64,000 bases of DNA from an uncultured Actinomycetota bacterium. GTDB lineage: Bacteria; Actinomycetota; Actinomycetes; Mycobacteriales; Mycobacteriaceae. Below the pieces are notes generated by a model. That model made no database searches, was not told the DNA's origin, and saw nothing but the letters and a program-made list of their open reading frames with translations. Numbering within the stretch: the stretch's first letter is position 1; every line of letters begins with the position of its first letter. The DNA lies in assembly GCA_963794245.1 (NCBI GenBank), contig CAWCDD010000005.1, positions 498,059 to 562,058 of the forward strand, in the 5' to 3' direction. Below, piece after piece: positions 25,127 through 33,625 of the stretch. Both the position numbers and the translations under genes were made by a program.

Positions 25127-25808
25127 AGCCCGCACCGCGCAGCGTGTGGATCATCGGGTCGCGGCCGTTGTCGATCTTCTTGCGTAAGTAGGAGATATAC
25201 AGCTCGACGATGTTGGACCGCCCGCCGAAGTCGTAACTCCATACCCGATCGAGAATCTGCGCCTTGCTCAGCACCCGCTTGGAATTGCGCATCATGAACC
25301 GCAACAGCTCAAACTCGGTGGAGGTCAACGAGATCGTTTCACCGGCACGAGTCACCTCGTGGCTGTCCTCGTCCAGCACCAGGTCCCCGACCACGAGCTG
25401 CGCGCCGCTGTCCATCGTCGTGACTCCGGTGCGCCGCAACAGCGCTCGCAACCGCAGCACGACCTCTTCGATGCTGAACGGTTTGGTGACATAGTCGTCG
25501 CCACCCGCGGTCAACCCGGCGATGCGGTCTTCCACCGCGTCCTTGGCCGTCAACAACAGCACCGGCAGCTGCGGATTCTCTTCGCGCAGTTTGTGTAATA
25601 CGTCGAGCCCGCTCATATCGGGCAACATCACGTCGAGCACGACCACGTCGGGTCGCTGGGCACGGGCCGACGCGATGGCCGACGATCCGTCACCGGCGGT
25701 CGCGATGTTCCAGCCTTCGTACCGCAGCGCCATCGACACCATTTCGGCCAGGACCGATTCGTCATCCACGACCAGCACGTTGATCGGATTGCCGTCCGCA
25801 CGGCACAT
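25104..25808 (-). CDS. tcrX: OmpR-family response regulator TcrX
   Basis: ATG at 25808 (MCRADGNPINVLVVDDE...) gives 234 aa as in Mtb. Receiver domain D...D...K and a winged-helix C-terminus (LSKAQILDRVWSYDF...). Confidence 0.9.
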   Translation of the reverse strand: MCRADGNPINVLVVDDESVLAEMVSMALRYEGWNIATAGDGSSAIASARAQRPDVVVLDVMLPDMSGLDVLHKLREENPQLPVLLLTAKDAVEDRIAGLTAGGDDYVTKPFSIEEVVLRLRALLRRTGVTTMDSGAQLVVGDLVLDEDSHEVTRAGETISLTSTEFELLRFMMRNSKRVLSKAQILDRVWSYDFGGRSNIVELYISYLRKKIDNGRDPMIHTLRGAGYVLKPAR

Positions 25809-25933
25809 GACAACGCGCTCTACGGAGGTTCGAGGCTGCGTCACAGGTTCCAGTATCCGCGCGCGACTGGGCCGCCGCTATGACATTCCTTTGTGTGTCC
25901 TGTGAAACAGCAGGCGAGCCTGCTCGGCGGTGC

Positions 25934-26089
25934 CTAGTACCAGTACCGCCTACCGGCGACCGGTCGGCCGACCGAGCCAAGGATCCACAGCACCGCGCCG
26001 ATGACGATTAGGACAATTCCAATCGTCCACAGCAACGGAATGGCGAAAACATATCCAAGAATGAGGAGAACGATACCCAAGACGACCAT
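25934..26089 (-). CDS. 51-aa two-TM small membrane protein (below the ORF-track length cutoff)
   Basis: Hand translation: MVVLGIVLLILGYVFAIPLLWTIGIVLIVIGAVLWILGSVGRPVAGRRYWY-stop. An AAGGAAA SD lies 7 nt upstream, and it starts 12 nt after the stop of the upstream small gene. Codons are richer in A/T at the third position than in neighbouring genes. Confidence 0.65.
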   Translation of the reverse strand: MVVLGIVLLILGYVFAIPLLWTIGIVLIVIGAVLWILGSVGRPVAGRRYWY

Positions 26090-26100
26090 GACAGTTTCCT

Positions 26101-26337
26101 TTACGCGAGGGAATCTAAGTTACTGGGCATTGAACTGGGTTGCGGTACATGGCAATCCTTGACTTTCGGGTTGACGCCCCCGTAGTTCAAAGGCCCCGCG
26201 ACCACCGTCAGCGCGATGTTTCCCGCCGTGACACAATTTGTTTGCCCGGTTTTGAAGTAATCGCGTTGCCATGCTGCGAAAACCCCAATGAGCAGCCACA
26301 CCAAGACGATCGCGCCGATTATTCCGCGACCACGCAT
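26101..26337 (-). CDS. 78-aa single-TM small protein with two Cys
   Basis: MRGRGIIGAIVLVWLLIGVFAAWQRDYFKTGQTNCVTAGNIALTVVAGPLNYGGVNPKVKDCHVPQPS.... A GGAGG SD lies 6 nt upstream of the ATG at 26337. Confidence 0.65.
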   Translation of the reverse strand: MRGRGIIGAIVLVWLLIGVFAAWQRDYFKTGQTNCVTAGNIALTVVAGPLNYGGVNPKVKDCHVPQPSSMPSNLDSLA

Positions 26338-26454
26338 CGTGACCTCCGTTGTGTTCGAGAAGGATTTTCTCGGTGCCTAGACGATACCCGTTAGACCCGT
26401 GTCTAAACATCGCCGTGGCCAACTTGTGGACCCCTGAAAGCAACGACCTGAGCA

Positions 26455-26620
26455 CTACGAATGACCGGCCAGCCATTCCGCGGCCCGTCTCTTGGAGGCC
26501 CGGGACAGCCACGCGTCCGCAATCAGCTCGGCCAATTCCGTCGTCGTGATTTCCGGCAGCCGGGCGGCGCGCACCAATACCGAAGGGTGCCCGTCGAAAT
26601 GGTCGGTGGTACGCCCTAGT
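26455..26620 (-). pseudogene. Possible C-terminal remnant of a small conserved protein (no start codon)
   Basis: The minus frame reads ...TTDHFDGHPSVLVRAARLPEITTTELAELIADAWLSRASKRRAAEWLAGHS-stop (stop at 26455-26457). Upstream, this frame runs into the 3' end of the methyltransferase gene in another frame, with no plausible start. Confidence 0.3.
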
Positions 26621-27557: not shown

Positions 27558-27737
27558 CGCCAGTCCTCTCCACCGGTGATAGTCGGTTGCGTTCACTATT
27601 CTTCCAGCCGCGGACGCCTCCCGGCACGCTCGGACCGTGACTTCCCCTGTTTTCCCAGGGGGCCCACAGCTTGGCAAGGAGGTCCGGTACACACCGAAAC
27701 CCAACGGGTGCGCGCTCGCAGAGTAGGTTCACAGCAC

Positions 27738-28799
27738 GTGGAGCACGTGGACTTGAACGCCGTCGCGGAATGGATGTCCGGGCAGGGACTGGGCGAGGGC
27801 CCGCTGCAGGATGTTTCGGCCGTCACCGGCGGAACGCAGAACGTGATGCTGCGGTTCGTCAGGTCCGGACGGCCCTATGTGCTGCGGCGCGGACCACGAC
27901 ACCTGCGTCCGCGCAGCAACAGCGTGATCCTGCGGGAAACCAAAGTCCTTGCGGCGCTGGCCGGTTCTGATGTGCCGCACCCGCACCTGATCGCGGTGTG
28001 CGACGACACGAGTGTGCTCGGCGAGGCCGTCTTCTACCTGATGGATCCGGTCGACGGATTCAACGCCGGCGAGGGACTGCCGCCGCTGCATGCCGGCGAT
28101 GCCGGCGTGCGGCACGGCATGGGCCTGTCGATGGCCGATGCGCTGGCGAAGCTGGGTGCCGTCGACCACGTCGCGGTGGGTCTCGCCGACTTCGGCAAGC
28201 CGGAGGGCTTCCTGGAACGCCAGGTGCCGCGCTGGCTTTCGGAGCTGGACTCCTACAGCGAGTACGACGGCTACCCCGGGCCGCAGATCCCGGGCATCGA
28301 GGAAGTGTCGACCTGGCTGGAACGTCACCGTCCGGCGACGTGGACGCCCGGCATCATGCACGGCGACTACCACGCCGCCAACGTGATGTTCTCCCGCACC
28401 GGGCCGGACGTGGTCGCGATCGTCGACTGGGAGATGTGCACGATCGGTGACCCGCTGCTGGATCTGGGCTGGCTGCTGGCCACCTGGCGCCAGCCGGACG
28501 GGTCCAGCGTGTTCAGCCACGCCCTGGGCGGACAGGACGGATTGGCCAGCACCGACGAACTATTCGAGCGCTACGCCGCCAACACCACCCGCGACCTGTC
28601 GCATATCACCTGGTACACCGTGCTGGCCTGCTTCAAGCTGGGCATCGTGATCGAGGGCACGCTGGCCCGCGCGTGTGCCGGCAAGGCCGAGAAGGAGGTC
28701 GGCGATCAACTCCACGCGGCCACGGTCCACCTGTTCGAGCGTGCGCTGACCCAGATCGAGTCCGAGGGGGCCCGGGTGACCGGATTAGCATCTCCTGAC
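27738..28799 (+). CDS. APH-fold phosphotransferase (3' end uncertain)
   Basis: GTG at 27738 (VEHVDLNAVAEWMSGQGLGEG...), then GIMHGDYHAANVMF and IVDWEMCTIGDPLLD. In the given sequence the frame reads through to 29546 (656-aa ORF). Third-position GC collapses at 28782-28796, and a G5 run (28766-28770) precedes out-of-frame stops at 28777 and 28796. Confidence 0.65.
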
Positions 28800-29281
28800 G
28801 TGCCTCCTTACCCAGAGGAACCCGACTATTACTCCGAGCCGACGATGGCGGCGCGATACGGCGGTTACGACCCCGCGCCCGAGCCGGAGCCCCCGACACC
28901 GTGGTATCGGCGCCCGCTAGCGCTGGTCGCGGCGGGCGCAGGTCGGGGTGATCGTGCTCGGCCTGGCGATCTACGCCGTCGTCACGTTGGTGAGCGGCTC
29001 GCCGGCCCCGAGTCCGGCGACACGACGACGCCCACGCCGTCCCCCACCACGGCGGTGACCAGCACGGCCGCGGAACCCCGACATCGGCATCACCCGCCGG
29101 GCGGCGGAGGCGGTGGCGCCCCGACGCAGACGGTGACCGAGACGGCTCCACCACCGAGCACCGACACTCCCACGACGACTGTTCCGCCGAGCACCGTCAT
29201 GGTGTCACCGAGCACGGAGACCAGCACGGTTACCCAAACGGTGACGGTGCCGACGCGCGGCCGTTCAATCCACGCCCATAG
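28800..29281 (+). pseudogene. Pro/Thr-rich membrane-anchored protein, apparently frame-disrupted
   Basis: GTG at 28800 gives VPPYPEEPDYYSEPTMAARYGGYDPAPEPEPPTPWYRRPLALVAAGA in frame 0. A clean TM helix, VGVIVLGLAIYAVVTLVSGSPAPSPA, is only in frame 1 (28942 to about 29019). TTTPTPSPTTAVTSTAAEP...TETSTVTQTVTVP is back in frame 0. The true stop is unclear. Confidence 0.4.
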
Positions 29282-29355
29282 CGGTCCGAGAAGCCGAGCA
29301 ACTAGGGTCATGGCCATGAGTCGGCTCGAGCGCGGCCTGGCACGGTCTACGGGAC

Positions 29356-29535
29356 ATGCGCTTCGACTTGTATGCGCAGCCCATGCGGCAGGTGAGTGTG
29401 GAGCTAAAGATCGTGTTCTTCGCGATCCACGTGCCGATCGCCGGCGGGAAGACTCTGAAAATCCCGATGATCGCGACGGTTGGGCCGATGCCGGACAAGT
29501 CCAAGGAGAGCGACGCCGCCGACGGCGACGCGTAG
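29356..29535 (+). CDS. Possible 59-aa ORF (strand ambiguous)
   Basis: MRFDLYAQPMRQVSVELKIVFFAIHVPIAGGKTLKIPMIATVGPMPDKSKESDAADGDA-stop. Third-position GC is very high, but the minus-strand ORF 29265..29714 shares the same third-position phase. Few T-first codons mildly favour the plus strand. Confidence 0.25.
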   Translation: MRFDLYAQPMRQVSVELKIVFFAIHVPIAGGKTLKIPMIATVGPMPDKSKESDAADGDA

Positions 29536-29543
29536 CGCTCAAC

Positions 29544-29571
29544 TGAGCGCGCCCGAAGGGATTCGAACCCC
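29544..29571. repeat. Left copy of the 28-bp direct repeat (partial duplicate of the tRNA-Arg 3' end; att-like)
   Basis: TGAGCGCGCCCGAAGGGATTCGAACCCC is identical to 32258-32285. The sequence beyond it does not fold into a tRNA. Confidence 0.8.
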
Positions 29572-29761
29572 TTGCCCCGGTCAGGGTTCACGGACGAACG
29601 CACCACATGGCTCGGGGTCGGTGGAAGCAGGACAGTCAGACCCGATCGGGTACGGTTTAACACGTCGGTAACCTTGTCGGCGCTCAGGGATGACTTGTTG
29701 AACGTTGGGCTCATTGCCCAGCCACGATCCCGTCGCCTTCCGAGACTTCTCAGAGGAATCT

Positions 29762-30928
29762 ATGTCTTCGCGTGCCAGCAGTACCCCTTATTTCAACGCG
29801 TCCAAACAAAGCGATCCGGCAGCTCTCTTCGCGTTGCCTGCTGGTTCCACCGCGATCGTCTACTGCGAGGGCCAGTTCGGCGAGCAGGACGGTAAGACCG
29901 CCAACGGCCTGGTCAGGCACTCGGAGAAATACGAGATCCTCAGCGTCATCGACAGCCTCCGCGCCGGCATGGATGCCGGGAAGTTCCTCGACGGCACCGC
30001 GAACGGCATCCCGGTGCTGGCTTCGCTCACCGAGGCCATCTCGCATGCCGGCCACGTACCCGACTACCTGATCTGCGGGCTGGCACCTGCCGACGGCCTA
30101 CTGTCGAGCGAGCAGCGGGTCGTGCTGCTCGACGGCATCGCCCGTGGGATGCACATCATCAACGGCCTGCACGAGTTCCTCAACGCCGACGCCGAATTCG
30201 TGGCGGCCGCCGTGATCGCGGGTGTCACCATCACCGACGTGCGCCGACCCAAGGCCAAGCGCGACCTGCATCTGTTCTCCGGCCGGATCTTCGACGTCAC
30301 ATGCCCCAGGATCGCGATCCTGGGTACGGACGGGGCGATCGGTAAGCGCACCACCGCCACGCTGCTGGTCCAGGCACTGAACGCGCGTGGCATCAAGACG
30401 GTCATGGTCGGCACCGGTCAGACCACCTTGATCCAGGGCGGTAAGTACGGCGTCGCGCTGGATGCGCTGGTCCCCCAGTTCTGCTCGGGCGAGGTCGAGC
30501 ACCAGGTCGTCGCCGCGTTCGAGGGCGAGGATCCCGACGTGATCGTCGTCGAGGGCCAGGGCGCACTCAGCCACCCCGCGTACATCACATCGGCGCACAT
30601 CCTGCGTGGCAGCCGCCCGGCCGGCGTGATCGTGCAGCACGCACCGAAGCGCAAGGTGCTCGGCGACTTCCCGATGGTGGCGATGCCGACCGCGGCCAGC
30701 GAGATCGCACTGATCGAGGCGTTCGCCGACACCCGCGTCATCGGGGTCACGATCAACCACGAGGAAATGACCGAAGACGAGCTGAGCAACGCGATCTCCG
30801 AACATCACTCGCAACTCGGCATCCCGGTCACCGACCCTCTGACGCGCCCCTCGTCGGATCTGGTCGACATGGTGCTGACGGCTTTCCCCGCGCTCGCGGT
30901 GGTGGCCGACACGAACACCTCGGTGTGA
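29762..30928 (+). CDS. DUF1611-family P-loop protein (DgcN-like N-acetyltransferase family)
   Basis: The ORF track gives 29705..30928; ATG at 29762 (MSSRASSTPYF...) is likely. It contains AIVYCEGQFG..GKTANGL and the P-loop ILGTDGAIGKRTTA. Confidence 0.7.
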   Translation: MSSRASSTPYFNASKQSDPAALFALPAGSTAIVYCEGQFGEQDGKTANGLVRHSEKYEILSVIDSLRAGMDAGKFLDGTANGIPVLASLTEAISHAGHVPDYLICGLAPADGLLSSEQRVVLLDGIARGMHIINGLHEFLNADAEFVAAAVIAGVTITDVRRPKAKRDLHLFSGRIFDVTCPRIAILGTDGAIGKRTTATLLVQALNARGIKTVMVGTGQTTLIQGGKYGVALDALVPQFCSGEVEHQVVAAFEGEDPDVIVVEGQGALSHPAYITSAHILRGSRPAGVIVQHAPKRKVLGDFPMVAMPTAASEIALIEAFADTRVIGVTINHEEMTEDELSNAISEHHSQLGIPVTDPLTRPSSDLVDMVLTAFPALAVVADTNTSV

Positions 30929-32091
30929 CGCTTCGGCTCGAGACCGATCTCGACAAGGTCGAGCAGAACACGCGCATCCTGGTTGACCGGCTGGCCTCCA
31001 AGGGCATTCGGGTCACCGGCATCACCAAGGCCGTGTTGGGCTCGCCGGGAGTCGGCGCGGCGATGCTGCGCGGCGGCGCCTGCGGCCTCGGCGATTCCCG
31101 GGTGCCGAACCTCGCCCGGCTGGCCGGTCTGGACCGACCACTGTCACGCACGTTGGTCCGCTCTCCCATGCTCAGCGAAGTGCCACGGGTCGTTGACGTC
31201 GCCGACGTCAGTCTAAACACCGAGGCCGTCGTGCTGGCCGCGCTCGATCAGGCCGCTTCCCAGCAGAAGCGGACGCACGCCGTCGTGCTCATGGTCGAGC
31301 TGGGTGACCTTCGCGAGGGAATCGTGATCGGCGACGCCCCCGAGGCCGTGCGGGCCGTCCTCGCTCACTCCTCCCTCCGGCTTGCCGGGCTCGGCGCCAA
31401 CCTCGCCTGTCAGAGCGGTGTCGTGCCTGACGACCGGAACATGGGCATCCTCACCGGGCTCGTGGACGACGTCGAGGCACTGCACGGGATCTCCCTCGAC
31501 GTCGTCTCAGGCGGCAACTCGGCGAACCTGAGCTGGGCTCTGCGCACCCAGGACGTCGGCCGCATCAACGAGCTCCGACTCGGCGAAGCCATCCTGCTCG
31601 GCGTCGATCCGCTGTACCGGACGCCGATCCCCGGCCTACACACGAACGCCTTCACGTTGACCGCCGAGGTCATCGAGGTCGGCATGAAGCCGGCTCAGCC
31701 GTGGGGTGATCGTGGCCAGGCGGCCTTCGGTGAGGCGCCGGTCCGCACCGGCAGCAAGACCGTGCGTCAAGCAATCCTGGCCCTCGGTCGCCAGGACGTG
31801 GACCCAGACAGTCTGCAGCCACCCGAGGGCATCACGATCCTCGGGGTGAGCAGTGATCACCTCGTAGTCGACCTCGGCGATCACTCTGTCGCGGTCGGCG
31901 ACGAAATCGGCTTCGGCGTCGGCTACGGCGCACTCGTGCGGGCGATGACGTCGCCCTTCGTCACCAAGATCGAGCACCTTGGCCGTTCGGTCGCACCCGA
32001 GGCGATCCAGGCGCCGACACCGGTCCAGGTTTCGACCCCCCGCCCGGTGCCGGACACCGATGCCGGTGGCGAACCGCCCTTCCCAGCTTGA
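30925..32091 (+). CDS. PLP-dependent amino-acid racemase, alanine-racemase N-terminal-domain family (COG3457-like)
   Basis: 388-aa ORF with a GTGA start/stop overlap with the upstream gene. It contains ITKAVLG (candidate PLP Lys), VVSGGNS and RLGEAILLG, with a Pro-rich tail. Confidence 0.65.
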   Translation: MTLRLETDLDKVEQNTRILVDRLASKGIRVTGITKAVLGSPGVGAAMLRGGACGLGDSRVPNLARLAGLDRPLSRTLVRSPMLSEVPRVVDVADVSLNTEAVVLAALDQAASQQKRTHAVVLMVELGDLREGIVIGDAPEAVRAVLAHSSLRLAGLGANLACQSGVVPDDRNMGILTGLVDDVEALHGISLDVVSGGNSANLSWALRTQDVGRINELRLGEAILLGVDPLYRTPIPGLHTNAFTLTAEVIEVGMKPAQPWGDRGQAAFGEAPVRTGSKTVRQAILALGRQDVDPDSLQPPEGITILGVSSDHLVVDLGDHSVAVGDEIGFGVGYGALVRAMTSPFVTKIEHLGRSVAPEAIQAPTPVQVSTPRPVPDTDAGGEPPFPA

Positions 32092-32257
32092 GTGCCTGCT
32101 CCGCACAGTCCATCTCGGCATATCCGGTGTCACCGTCCGACTGCTGCTGGCCGTTGATCGAAGGACGAATCTTAAAGAAAGAGGACGGGCGCTACATGGG
32201 GCCGTCGTCAATGACCAACCGGGCCGCTTCCCACCCTGACGGAATGGGTCTCTGAGT

Positions 32258-32285
32258 TGAGCGCGCCCGAAGGGATTCGAACCCC
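32258..32285. repeat. Right copy of the 28-bp direct repeat (within and just 3' of tRNA-Arg)
   Basis: Identical to 29544-29571. Confidence 0.8.
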
Positions 32286-32334
32286 CAACCTTCTGATCCG
32301 TAGTCAGATGCTCTATCCGTTGAGCTACGGGCGC
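32262..32334 (-). tRNA. tRNA-Arg (anticodon ACG)
   Basis: Reverse complement: GCGCCCG-TA-GCTC-AACGGATA-GAGC-A-TCTGA-CTACGGA-TCAGA-AGGTT-GGGGG-TTCGAAT-CCCTT-CGGGCGC-G. CCA is not encoded. Confidence 0.9.
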
Positions 32335-32372: not shown

Positions 32373-32461
32373 CGGAGGCGAGAGGATTTGAACCTCCGGT
32401 CCCCTTTAAGGGGGACAACTCATTAGCAGTGAGTCCCATTCGGCCGCTCTGGCACGCCTCC
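32373..32461 (-). tRNA. tRNA-Ser (anticodon GCU)
   Basis: Reverse complement: GGAGGCG-TG-CCAGAGCGGCCGAATGGG, anticodon arm ACTCA-CTGCTAA-TGAGT, long variable arm, T arm GGAGG-TTCAAAT-CCTCT, CGCCTCC-G. Confidence 0.9.
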
Positions 32462-32550: not shown

Positions 32551-33625
32551 ATGACTGCCCGCCTACGGCCAGAGCTGGCCGGGCTGCCAGTTTATGTTCC
32601 TGGTAAGACGGTGCCGGGTTCGATGAAACTGGCCAGCAACGAGACGGTGTTCGGCCCGCTGCCCAGTGTCCGCGCCGCCATTGCGCAAGCGACCGACATC
32701 ATCAACCGCTACCCGGACAACGGCTGCGTGCAACTCAAAGCCGCACTGGCCAAGCATCTGGGTTCGGGTTTCGAACCCGAGCACGTCGCCGTCGGCGCCG
32801 GCTCGGTCAGCCTGTGCCAGCAGCTTGTTCAGATCACCGCCGCGGCCGGCGACGAGGTGATCTTCGGATGGCGCAGCTTCGAGCTCTACCCGCCGCAGGT
32901 CCAGGTCGCCGGCGCGACGGCAATCAAGGTGCCGCTGACCGACCACACCTTCGACCTCTACGCCATGCTCGCCGCGATCACCGAACGCACCCGGCTGATC
33001 TTCGTCTGCAACCCCAACAACCCGACCTCCACGGTCGTCGACCCGGACGCGCTGACCCGCTTCGTCGAGGCCGTTCCGCCGCACATCGTGATCGCCATCG
33101 ACGAGGCCTATGTCGAATACATCCGCGACGGCATGCTGCCCGACAGCCTGGGTTTGGTCCGTTCTCGGCGCAACGTTGTTGTGCTGCGGACCTTTTCGAA
33201 GGCATACGGACTGGCGGGCCTGCGCATCGGCTACGCGATCGGCCACCCGGATCTGATCACAGCGCTGGACCAGGTATTCGTGCCGTTCTCCGTCACGAGC
33301 ATCTCGCAGGCCGCCGCCATCGCGTCGCTGGACGCCGCCGACGAATTGTTGGCCCGCACCGACGCCCTGGTCGCCGACCGCGTTCGGGTGAGCGCGCAGT
33401 TGCGCGATGCCGGGTTCACTTTGCCGCCGTCGCAGGCGAACTTCGTCTGGCTGCCGTTGGGAGCCGCGCACTCAGGATTTCGTCGCGCAGGCGGCCAACG
33501 CGGGGATCGTCGTTCGCCAGTACGGCAGCGACGGCGCCCGCGTCTCCATCGGTGCGCCGGACGAAAACGATGCGCTGCTGACATTTGCCCGCGACTGGAT
33601 TACCCACCCGGAGGTTGACGAATGA
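32551..33625 (+). pseudogene. hisC2: Histidinol-phosphate/aromatic aminotransferase HisC2, one frame disruption near the 3' end
   Basis: Frame 1 reads MTARLRPELAGLPVYVPGK...NPNNPT...RTFSKAYGLAGLRIGY...QANFVWLPLGA up to 33465. RTQDFVAQAANAGIVVRQYGSDGARVSIGAPDENDALLTFARDWITHPEVDE-stop follows in frame 2 from 33467, so there is an extra base at about 33466. Confidence 0.8.

Follow-up and report, generated by a model that had tools for sequence, protein, structure and literature searches.

A probable decayed integrative-element remnant at a mycobacterial tRNA-Arg(ACG) gene carries a two-gene operon with a conserved structured leader

How did two metabolic genes come to lie between duplicated ends of a tRNA gene? 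This question is raised by positions 29544-32285 of the 64,000-nucleotide stretch of mycobacterial DNA analyzed here (the window), where the 28-mer TGAGCGCGCCCGAAGGGATTCGAACCCC occurs exactly at 29544-29571 and again at 32258-32285, with no other exact occurrence and no third copy found when up to three mismatches were allowed. The proximal copy lies inside a functional tRNA-Arg(ACG) gene on the minus strand (32262-32334, Rfam tRNA model 68.8 bits; ARAGORN gives 32261-32334, also minus) and, by the Rfam boundary, comprises the last 24 nt of the tRNA plus 4 nt of trailer. The distal copy appears to be a displaced, truncated tRNA-Arg 3′ end, again 24 nt with the 4-nt trailer, and would be the far-side att remnant. 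It was not seen to belong to any longer conserved non-tRNA sequence. An earlier note on this DNA had placed the two copies at the same positions, had described the proximal one in the same way and had read the pair as attL and attR, left by integration at the 3′ end of a tRNA gene. Beyond the tRNA-Arg, on the side of the site that is fixed, comes a conserved neighbour, tRNA-Ser(GCT) (32373-32461, minus strand), and after it a hisC2-like aminotransferase gene (32551-33618); this tRNA-Ser/hisC2-like arrangement is conserved in all 80 related loci, and the exact HisC2 protein of the window is not on record in other assemblies. We consider it probable that the segment is what remains, after decay, of an integrative element that inserted site-specifically into the 3′ half of tRNA-Arg(ACG), and that it resembles the cis-mobilizable elements (CIMEs).

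The 2,686 bp between the repeat copies (the islet) contains two ORFs only, both on the plus strand. The first encodes a DUF1611 protein of 388 aa (29762-30928) with a Rossmann-like N-terminal domain and a P-loop C-terminal domain (PF07755, 216.6 bits; PF17396, 77.4 bits), and the second an Orr-like PLP amino-acid racemase, also of 388 aa (30925-32091; Ala_racemase_N, PF01168, 60.2 bits). They overlap through a GTGA start/stop at 30925-30928, an arrangement of translational coupling. Comparison with the other islet copies gave dN/dS values of 0.16-0.20 for DUF1611 and 0.31-0.33 for the racemase, and this range indicates that both genes are functional. Neither Pfam searches of the ORFs nor tblastn with three kinds of integrase (those of loci L052 and L019 and of phage BQuat) detected an integrase in the islet, in agreement with the note's description of two coupled genes without a recombinase. 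None was found elsewhere in the 64-kb window either, and neither an integrase nor a detectable remnant of one is present in any of the six islet copies. Scanning the islet for promoter and terminator consensus sequences likewise gave nothing.

The note had asked for the deviation of the islet in GC and codon usage to be measured. No deviation was seen: GC is 0.62-0.70 in islet and flanks alike, and GC3 is 0.84-0.86 in the islet versus 0.80-0.92 in the flanks, so that composition offers no hint of a foreign source. Such a match with its surroundings would suit genes native to this position, with the repeat arising by chance or by local duplication. We regard this explanation as very improbable, given that none of 100 dinucleotide-preserving shuffles contained two matches to the 28-mer, that both genes are absent from the five nearest relatives and that the same site holds integrases and other repeat-bounded inserts in many genomes.

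For comparison we used 80 Mycobacterium loci, with the neighbouring hisC2-like gene as anchor. Both genes are present in only three of them (L029, L047 and L036), which are more distant from the window than the five nearest relatives, each with a second tRNA-Arg fragment 2.77-3.03 kb away, so the relatives do not all carry the genes. In the five nearest relatives (L001-L005) the single repeat copy is the tRNA itself. The clearest case is a scar-free pair of filled (L047) and empty (L048) sites, with L030 also empty: positions 4000-6909 of L047 align unbroken to 6843-9750 of L048, from the left flank into the tRNA, and 9718-10100 of L047 align to 9718-10100 of L048. The comparison of empty and filled sites that the note had called for therefore yields single-copy sites, although in the nearest relatives such a site is occupied by 650-1470 bp of other DNA, unrelated from one relative to the next, against 8 nt in the window. 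Because these sites are not cleanly empty, at least one further rearrangement has to be assumed in the lineage of the window. Together, the single-copy relatives, the L047 pairing with L048 and L030 and the integrase-bearing elements at the same site bear out the attL/attR reading. Among the marks of a tRNA-associated island, duplication of the tRNA 3′ end and presence/absence polymorphism are both seen here, and a recombinase of its own is not.

A tree of the hisC2 region covering 81 loci distributes the carriers over three distinct clades, in each of which their closest neighbours are without the islet. When the same genome pairs were used for islet and flanks, dS of the islet genes was 0.20-0.29 compared with 0.42-0.97 for 9-13 flanking genes, lying below every flanking gene in all three comparisons, which points to horizontal spread. 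Lower dS could in part reflect stronger constraint on codon usage, or recombination with copies of the module outside the islet, one of which (L085) nests within the islet clade. These data bear most directly on an account in which a single ancient insertion descended vertically and was lost many times, by recombination between the repeats or by integrase-driven excision, leaving scattered survivors. All islet copies have homologous ends and so a single origin, repeat-mediated loss would leave just such scar-free empty sites as we observed, no copy has an integrase and the composition matches the host. We nevertheless judge this account unlikely, since it has to accommodate an islet that has diverged less than each of its flanking genes in three genome comparisons, and many independent precise losses would be needed to leave carriers in three separate clades. 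Nor does it fit the left flank of L036, which is wholly different, or the tRNA itself, whose 3′ half differs from that of the five nearest relatives at a polymorphic base. The window has C at this base (GAACCCC[C]AACC), as does L036, and all five nearest relatives have T. A replacement of this kind is what integration would be expected to produce, although the base varies recurrently across the genus, which weakens it as a single-base footprint.

Horizontal spread need not involve an integrase. The islet might instead have travelled on larger pieces of chromosome, through distributive conjugal transfer or transformation for instance, and been patched in by homologous recombination at the tRNA-Arg/tRNA-Ser block and the left flank, the repeat being a relic of one old integration. 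The two-tRNA block is near-identical across species and could have served as an anchor, and the very similar module in L085, at a non-tRNA locus, implies that exchange independent of att sites does happen. Several observations make this quite unlikely as the route into the present site. High similarity ends at the repeats, with hisC2 beyond the tRNAs at a dS of 0.54-0.79 and left flanks that are 81% identical or unrelated; the only sequence shared on the left is a tRNA fragment of 28-46 nt, too short for efficient exchange; and the tandem arrays with att-type junctions in L106 and L006 point to site-specific events.

Returning to site-specific integration, the ends of the islet show what has been kept and what has been lost. 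The most complete copy is that of L036, in which the distal tRNA fragment measures 46 nt and reaches the anticodon loop. Alignable sequence shared by the window and L036 runs from 29570 onward (7013 onward in L036), with a deletion junction at 29571/29572 (GAACCCC joined to TTGCCCC) and a left-end remnant of the islet at 29572-29657. Missing from the window is about 300 bp that in L036 separates the tRNA fragment from this point, including a left arm with three YTGTCGTCR repeats. L029 and L047 have a separate 17-nt deletion at the distal att site, and the two kinds of deletion indicate that this site has decayed independently. The 28-bp repeat is thus the deletion-shortened remnant of a 46-nt fragment and not the attachment core. 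L036 retains both arms; the window keeps both copies of the core, the distal one cut to 24 nt of tRNA, and has lost the left arm. With that arm gone and the core shortened, the window copy is probably fixed in place and no longer excisable.

At the other end, a right arm (32092-32257) adjoins the tRNA. One degenerate arm-type motif, CCGTCGTCAA, lies at 32202-32211. The conserved part of the arm (32204-32256) has homologues at the ends next to the tRNA in L036, L047 and L110, and also in the 90-bp spacer that L019 and L017 have between the integrase gene and tRNA-Arg. As for the left arm, it recurs with its three repeats in L106 and in the IMG/VR contig L173. To the left of the islet, a long ORF (27576-29546) has a TGA stop formed by the first three bases of the distal repeat; we rejected this overlap as coincidence. 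Position-specific GC shows the last ~650 nt of the ORF (from ~28,900) to be non-coding in that frame, and the real gene end on this side is a TAG at 29533-29535 in a different frame, which is kept in relatives.

Throughout the genus, the junction of tRNA-Arg(ACG), tRNA-Ser and hisC2 is variable and a hot spot for insertion. In twelve loci a further 3′ fragment of tRNA-Arg lies at a distance of 1.8-8.4 kb and the cargo varies, and at least three families of tyrosine integrase adjoin the tRNA (the L052, L019 and L020 types), with truncated or frameshifted integrase copies in L034, L037, L017 and L011. The L019 integrase (PF00589, 83.8 bits) lies beside a RepSA protein (438 bits) and an FtsK-like Tra protein, and L173 is a prophage remnant encoding portal, protease and major head proteins. 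In L106 the order is islet, right arm, tRNA fragment, left arm and second element, an order that we read as tandem accretion. We did not recover a single element with both arms and an integrase, the left-arm homologue being on L173 and the right-arm homologue on L019, nor did we find a parental element carrying this cargo together with an integrase. An L052-type integrase is unlikely to have been the helper, because the islands of that type have a different tRNA-proximal arm, GAAAGTATCAGGAAAGTGTC.

Phages use the same attachment site. The 3′ half of the tRNA is matched in 82 Mycobacterium phage records, and in those listed individually the match falls inside the immunity repressor gene, except in one (Nadezda, unannotated there). 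Among temperate actinobacteriophages, an attP that matches the 3′ half of tRNA-Arg(ACG) occurs in corynephage beta and in cluster G mycobacteriophages such as BQuat, where attP is inside the repressor gene and that gene adjoins the integrase gene. These phages share with the islet both the attachment site and an identity block that covers the tRNA 3′ half, and the prophage remnant L173 has the left arm of the islet. Their own genes set them apart: the islet contains two metabolic genes and no phage structural, lysis or regulatory gene. A cluster G prophage remnant was rejected as the source, since no locus, the islet copies included, has a homologue of the integrase, repressor or excise protein of BQuat.

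Actinomycete integrative and conjugative elements of the pSAM2 type (AICEs) integrate into the 3′ ends of tRNA genes, and L019, where int, repSA and an FtsK-like tra adjoin tRNA-Arg(ACG), is of this kind. The likeness extends to the L019 spacer, homologous to the islet's right arm, in which the TGTCGTCA repeats recur. The islet differs in that its cargo operon was not seen in L019, and in that xis is lacking from the window and int, repSA and FtsK-like tra were found by tblastn neither in the window nor in any islet copy.

The closest parallel is with CIMEs. These derive by decay from integrative conjugative or mobilizable elements, retaining attL and attR without the genes for integration and transfer, and they become movable once a related element has joined them in tandem accretion (PMC5704250; the relevant passage of that article cites Pavlovic 2004 and Bellanger 2011, and Zhang & Loria 2017 for Streptomyces). 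Like them, the islet is without integrase and transfer genes and is bounded by a duplicated tRNA 3′ end. Its right arm is homologous to that of integrase-bearing elements at the same site (L019 and L017) and its left arm to the ends of L173 and L106, it stands in a tandem array with a second element in L106, and it occurs in several lineages with less divergence than the host chromosome. The parallel is incomplete, because CIMEs keep both att sites and the window copy is without one arm and part of the core. The islet is also very small, with its two metabolic genes only. That it may be excised or transferred with a helper has indirect support in the L106 tandem array, the dS below that of the flanks and the patchy distribution.

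These comparisons suggest the following course of events. A tyrosine integrase would have recombined a copy of the tRNA 3′ half borne by the element with the chromosomal gene, the original identity block probably running from the tRNA 3′ end through the anticodon loop. Integration would have rebuilt the tRNA from element DNA and displaced the native 3′ end, which became the distal repeat, and would have brought in, without any integrase, a leader-controlled two-gene operon of DUF1611 and the Orr-like PLP racemase. This unit is found at the identical site, again with no integrase, in three or more distinct lineages of Mycobacterium and has diverged less than the surrounding chromosome, so that it most likely spread horizontally by means of another element's integrase, probably through tandem accretion followed by co-excision. 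Candidate helpers are AICEs of the L019 type or related prophages, whose att arms share TGTCGTCA repeats with those of the islet. In the window copy, the ~300-bp deletion removed the left arm and cut the tRNA fragment to 24 nt. The note's suggestion of a decayed or trans-mobilised element is supported. The data show the repeat, the insertion polymorphism, the absence of an integrase, the homology of the arms, the lower dS and the deletion; movement in trans, the identity of the helper integrase and the present immobility are what we infer from them. As a mycobacterial case of an islet without integrase at a tRNA attachment site, the locus is well documented: sites occur both filled and empty, and there are tandem arrays, integrases in decay and elements that may have acted as helpers.

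As a decayed mobile island, the islet is of an ordinary kind; its undescribed part is an RNA leader. A conserved structured leader of 103 nt (29658-29760, plus strand) precedes the DUF1611 gene and scores 89.1 bits (E 7e-18) with the covariance model R1. The motif was found 5′ of all 63 distinct DUF1611 homologues searched and had no significant match in 1.44 Mb of loci without a DUF1611 gene. The leader matches no Rfam family and was undescribed until now: scans of the window and six other loci against Rfam 15 returned no match within it at E values up to 1. It is a candidate cis-regulatory RNA, with a predicted hairpin that would sequester the Shine-Dalgarno sequence and another helix that pairs CUCAGGG with CUCUGAG. 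If it is a riboswitch, its ligand would give an experimental handle on the substrate of DUF1611, a widespread family, and the presence of the motif 5′ of DUF1611 genes is the most useful by-product of this analysis.

A bolder and tentative reading, which we hold to be possible rather than likely, is that the islet still works as a hitch-hiker and is not debris. It would then be a minimal cassette without integrase that has retained its arm-type repeats for integrase binding, has been moved repeatedly between Mycobacterium species by the integrases of tRNA-Arg-specific ICEs or prophages, and delivers the racemase/DUF1611 operon under a riboswitch-like leader that is new to description and whose conservation extends from Mycobacterium to Pseudonocardia and Microbacterium. 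Were this true, the ligand of the leader would reveal what DUF1611 enzymes act on.

What the two proteins do is indicated at the level of families. The domain assignments that the note had made (DUF1611 and a PLP enzyme of alanine-racemase fold) hold, and its proposed link to D-glutamate N-acetylation through DgcN survives as a family-level lead only: the DUF1611 protein reaches 146.2 bits against the 480-bit cut-off of the NCBIfam equivalog model for DgcN (NF041892), and the racemase 322 bits against a cut-off of 480 for the ornithine racemase model Orr (NF040742), both far under the thresholds. The DUF1611 protein belongs to the same fold family as DgcN and has relatives in the PDB (2G0T, 2OBN and 7XRJ). 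The racemase aligns over its full length to the Orr model and, on its sequence, is best described as related to Orr without assigned membership. DgcA, the partner of DgcN, is an enolase-type N-acetyl-amino-acid racemase, whereas the partner of the islet DUF1611 protein is a PLP racemase of fold type III. Annotation should flag both genes as horizontally acquired and accessory, and the names DgcN and Orr are unsuitable for them. Nothing relevant on DUF1611, COG3367, PF07755 or COG3457 was found in the literature. Outside the islet, no integrase was found beside the module in at least 20 other contexts, nor were fragments of tRNA-Val or tRNA-Phe found flanking it in L105 and L089. Very similar versions of the gene module are present away from tRNA genes, as in L085, and at other loci an M19 dipeptidase gene is a recurrent neighbour.

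Two exact copies of the 28-mer TGAGCGCGCCCGAAGGGATTCGAACCCC lie in the 64-kb window, at 29544-29571 and 32258-32285, confirming the earlier note's observation, and no third copy is present in the window with up to three mismatches allowed. Recurrence of the repeat by chance is excluded (two matches in 0 of 100 dinucleotide-preserving shuffles). The proximal copy coincides with the end of a minus-strand tRNA-Arg(ACG) gene (32261-32334 by ARAGORN; 32262-32334 by Rfam, 68.8 bits), and the repeat therefore consists of the final 24 nt of the tRNA plus 4 nt of trailer. The islet lies downstream of the tRNA 3' end, the geometry expected for integration. Between the repeats we found only two open reading frames, both on the plus strand and joined by a GTGA overlap, encoding a DUF1611 protein (29762-30928; PF07755 216.6 bits, PF17396 77.4 bits) and an Ala_racemase_N protein (30925-32091; PF01168 60.2 bits). 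The flanks are made up of conserved mycobacterial genes, with a histidine kinase and response regulator pair, an LCM-type methyltransferase and an APH-family kinase on the left, and tRNA-Ser(GCT) and a hisC2-like aminotransferase on the right. A check for deviating GC or codon usage, proposed in that note, gave a negative answer, as the islet does not differ from its flanks in GC content or GC3.

When comparing 80 Mycobacterium loci anchored on the hisC2-like gene (L-numbers denote fetched comparison loci or contigs), we found that the nearest relatives of the window, M. montefiorense (L001, HisC2 95% identity), M. triplex (L004), L002, L003 and L005, lack both islet genes and carry the tRNA itself as the sole repeat copy. 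The same two genes occupy the same site in three more distant genomes, L029, L036 and M. paraffinicum M11 (L047), each with a second tRNA-Arg fragment 2.77-3.03 kb off. Against the islet-free M. scrofulaceum (L048), L047 forms a clean filled/empty pair, its left flank running unbroken into the distal repeat just as that of L048 runs into the tRNA, with collinear right sides; M. paraffinicum DSM 44181 (L030) likewise has an empty site. In the hisC2-region tree the islet carriers fall into three separate clades, with non-carriers as the nearest neighbours of each, a distribution that vertical descent of the islet with many precise losses fits poorly.

Vertical descent is also a poor fit to the synonymous divergence. 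Relative to other islet copies, the islet genes have dS of 0.20-0.29 versus 0.42-0.97 for all of the 9-13 flanking genes in the same genome pairs, so that the islet is the least diverged stretch in every comparison, with a divergence close to that between the window and islet-free M. montefiorense. Both islet genes are under purifying selection (dN/dS 0.16-0.33 in the same comparisons). Exchange of the islet on larger fragments through homologous recombination is disfavoured, as the close similarity does not extend past the repeats: dS of the adjacent hisC2 is 0.54-0.79, and left flanks are 81% identical or, for L036, unrelated. A polymorphic base in the functional tRNA, GAACCCC[C/T]AACC, is C in the window and L036 and T in the five nearest relatives. 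This C is what the tRNA would be expected to have if element DNA had replaced its 3' half; it serves as supporting evidence only, because the position varies recurrently in the genus.

The most complete islet copy is L036, with a distal tRNA fragment of 46 nt in which identity runs through the anticodon loop and stops exactly at its far edge, a sublocation that is reportedly classic for tyrosine integrases. Its left arm, the islet end next to the distal fragment, follows as ~300 bp after the tRNA fragment; within it, GACTGTCGTCATCGTTGTCGTCGGAACTGTCGTCAGC carries the YTGTCGTCR repeat three times. In L029 and L047 the tRNA fragment is 17 nt shorter owing to an internal deletion. In the window, everything between GAACCCC and TTGCCCCGG is gone, removing the arm and keeping 24 nt of tRNA, and the 28-bp repeat is therefore a remnant rather than the attachment core. 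The distal att site has been damaged differently in each lineage. The right arm, the final 55-80 bp ahead of the tRNA, is common to the window, L036, L047 and a further islet copy, L110.

The tRNA-Arg(ACG) site is a hot spot for attachment. In 12 of the 80 loci, a further piece of the tRNA-Arg 3' end, 23-43 nt long, is found 1.8-8.4 kb downstream, enclosing varied cargo that includes a Fic protein, a catalase, a PE protein, a TIR-NACHT-WD40 protein and a TetR regulator. Three tyrosine-integrase families directly adjoin the tRNA: the L052 type (L052, L038 and L049, a split copy in L069 and truncated remnants in L034 and L037), the L019 type (intact in L019, frameshifted in L017, truncated in L011) and the L020 type (L020, L007, L041 and L006, in the last of which it lies beyond a tRNA fragment, pushed away by a later 3.6-kb insert). 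The tRNA 3' half is also matched in the phage collection by 82 Mycobacterium and 55 Gordonia phage records and by corynephage beta; in the cluster G phage BQuat, the match falls within the gene for the immunity repressor, immediately upstream of that for the integrase. Together with the insertion polymorphism, this hot spot supports the earlier reading of the repeats as attL/attR products of integration.

Two side observations concern the same site. The TIR-NACHT-WD40 cargo of the repeat-bounded island in L051 (3008-7669, minus strand) is a 1,553-aa protein of defence-typical architecture. In addition, almost every close relative of the window has different DNA separating the conserved left-flank gene from tRNA-Arg. 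These stretches span 650-1470 bp (L001 8254-9724; L003 9060-9711; also L002 and L004) and for the most part show no relationship to one another, which makes the tRNA trailer hypervariable even without a recognisable repeat-bounded island.

The islet had been described as lacking a recombinase, and this holds throughout: none of the six copies (window, L036, L029, L047, L110 and L106) contains an integrase or a detectable remnant, and the right-end indels leave no room for one, so that by parsimony the common ancestor of the copies was already integrase-less. The 90 bp that separate the integrase gene from tRNA-Arg in L019 and L017 are homologous to the right arm and hold two TGTCGTCAAA repeats. 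Ahead of the L019 integrase (PF00589 83.8 bits, plus an N-terminal SAM-like domain match) come a replication initiator of the pSAM2 RepSA type (PF20199, 438 bits) and an FtsK/SpoIIIE-type protein, together the gene set of a pSAM2-type actinomycete integrative conjugative element. This element occupies L019 3807-8348, at tRNA-Arg(ACG) in a Mycobacterium metagenome-assembled genome, with decayed copies in L017 and L011. The left arm recurs in L106 and in the IMG/VR contig L173, whose start falls within the tRNA fragment and arm and whose genes beyond these encode portal, head protease and major head proteins. In L106 (8280-8530), the DUF1611-racemase islet is followed by a partial right arm, a 41-nt tRNA-Arg fragment and the left arm of a second element, a tandem array with an att junction of the kind that accretion would produce. 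No single element with both arms and an integrase was recovered among these loci; the short repeat common to both arms suggests that they were served by one family of integrases.

The best explanation is that the islet is a CIME-like element, following the definition of cis-mobilizable elements in PMC5704250. It would have originated by site-specific integration at tRNA-Arg(ACG), would already have been integrase-less while spreading among Mycobacterium lineages, and most likely moved by means of a resident or co-integrated element sharing its site specificity. The window copy is decayed by now and is probably fixed.

The DUF1611 protein is unusually conserved, with 83-86% identity to proteins of Pseudonocardia, Nocardioides, Microbacterium and Herbiconiux, and the gene pair with ~120 nt of upstream sequence is found in many contexts. 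It accompanies an M19 dipeptidase gene in Pseudonocardia (L081), L112, L114, L115 and L140, and is flanked by a TetR gene and kup in metagenome-assembled Mycobacterium genomes (L085-L087), the L085 copy being nested inside the islet clade. It also lies 3' of tRNA-Phe(GAA) in L089 (12231-12315), 7 nt after the stop codon, and 3' of tRNA-Val(CAC) in L105 (8336-8638), 230 nt away, in both cases oriented to the tRNA as at tRNA-Arg; no duplicated tRNA fragment was detected in these two loci. The nearest NCBIfam models, DgcN (D-glutamate catabolism protein, 146 bits) and Orr (ornithine racemase, 322 bits), score far under their 480-bit cut-offs, and PDB relatives of DUF1611 are uncharacterised or carry generic annotation only. 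A rather doubtful proposal is that the module provides a salvage route for D-amino acids or dipeptides containing them, in which a free amino acid would be racemised by the PLP enzyme and modified by the DUF1611 enzyme.

The most promising lead from the islet is an undescribed leader RNA, a structured stretch of 103 nt ahead of the DUF1611 start (29658-29760, plus strand) that is conserved across several actinobacterial orders, from Mycobacterium to Pseudonocardia and Microbacterium. It has no Rfam 15 family match, and we found no description in the literature. A covariance model with a seed of 46 sequences detected it before 63 of 63 distinct DUF1611 homologues searched (47-123 bits; ~20 outside the seed alignment), with no significant match in 1.44 Mb of Mycobacterium loci lacking DUF1611. 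Of its three hairpins, the 5' one shows compensatory changes in 4-5 of 6 pairs, the second is GGGC/GCCC, and the third, CUCUGAG-loop-CUCAGAGGA, is predicted to sequester the Shine-Dalgarno sequence. In the 63-sequence alignment, which is fitted to the model and so favours structure, 93.7% of cells pair and double changes number 37 versus 11.3 ± 2.9 in shuffles. An upstream CUCAGGG can instead pair with CUCUGAG (96.5% of alignment cells paired), giving two mutually exclusive structures, and the modelled leader is a candidate riboswitch-type regulator.

Two minor features were noted in the left flank. Between the response-regulator and methyltransferase genes, a low-GC patch (25750-26500; 0.54-0.58 versus ~0.66 nearby) contains a 130-aa minus-strand ORF (26120-26512) with no Pfam match. 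In the 656-aa ORF at 27576-29546, which starts with the APH kinase domain, the codon-position GC signal is lost near 28.9 kb, within a Pro/Thr-rich stretch, and the final 59 codons ahead of the islet are in another frame (29356-29535) and conserved in relatives. A frameshift, the fusion of genes or the presence of two distinct genes may account for this pattern at 28900-29546.
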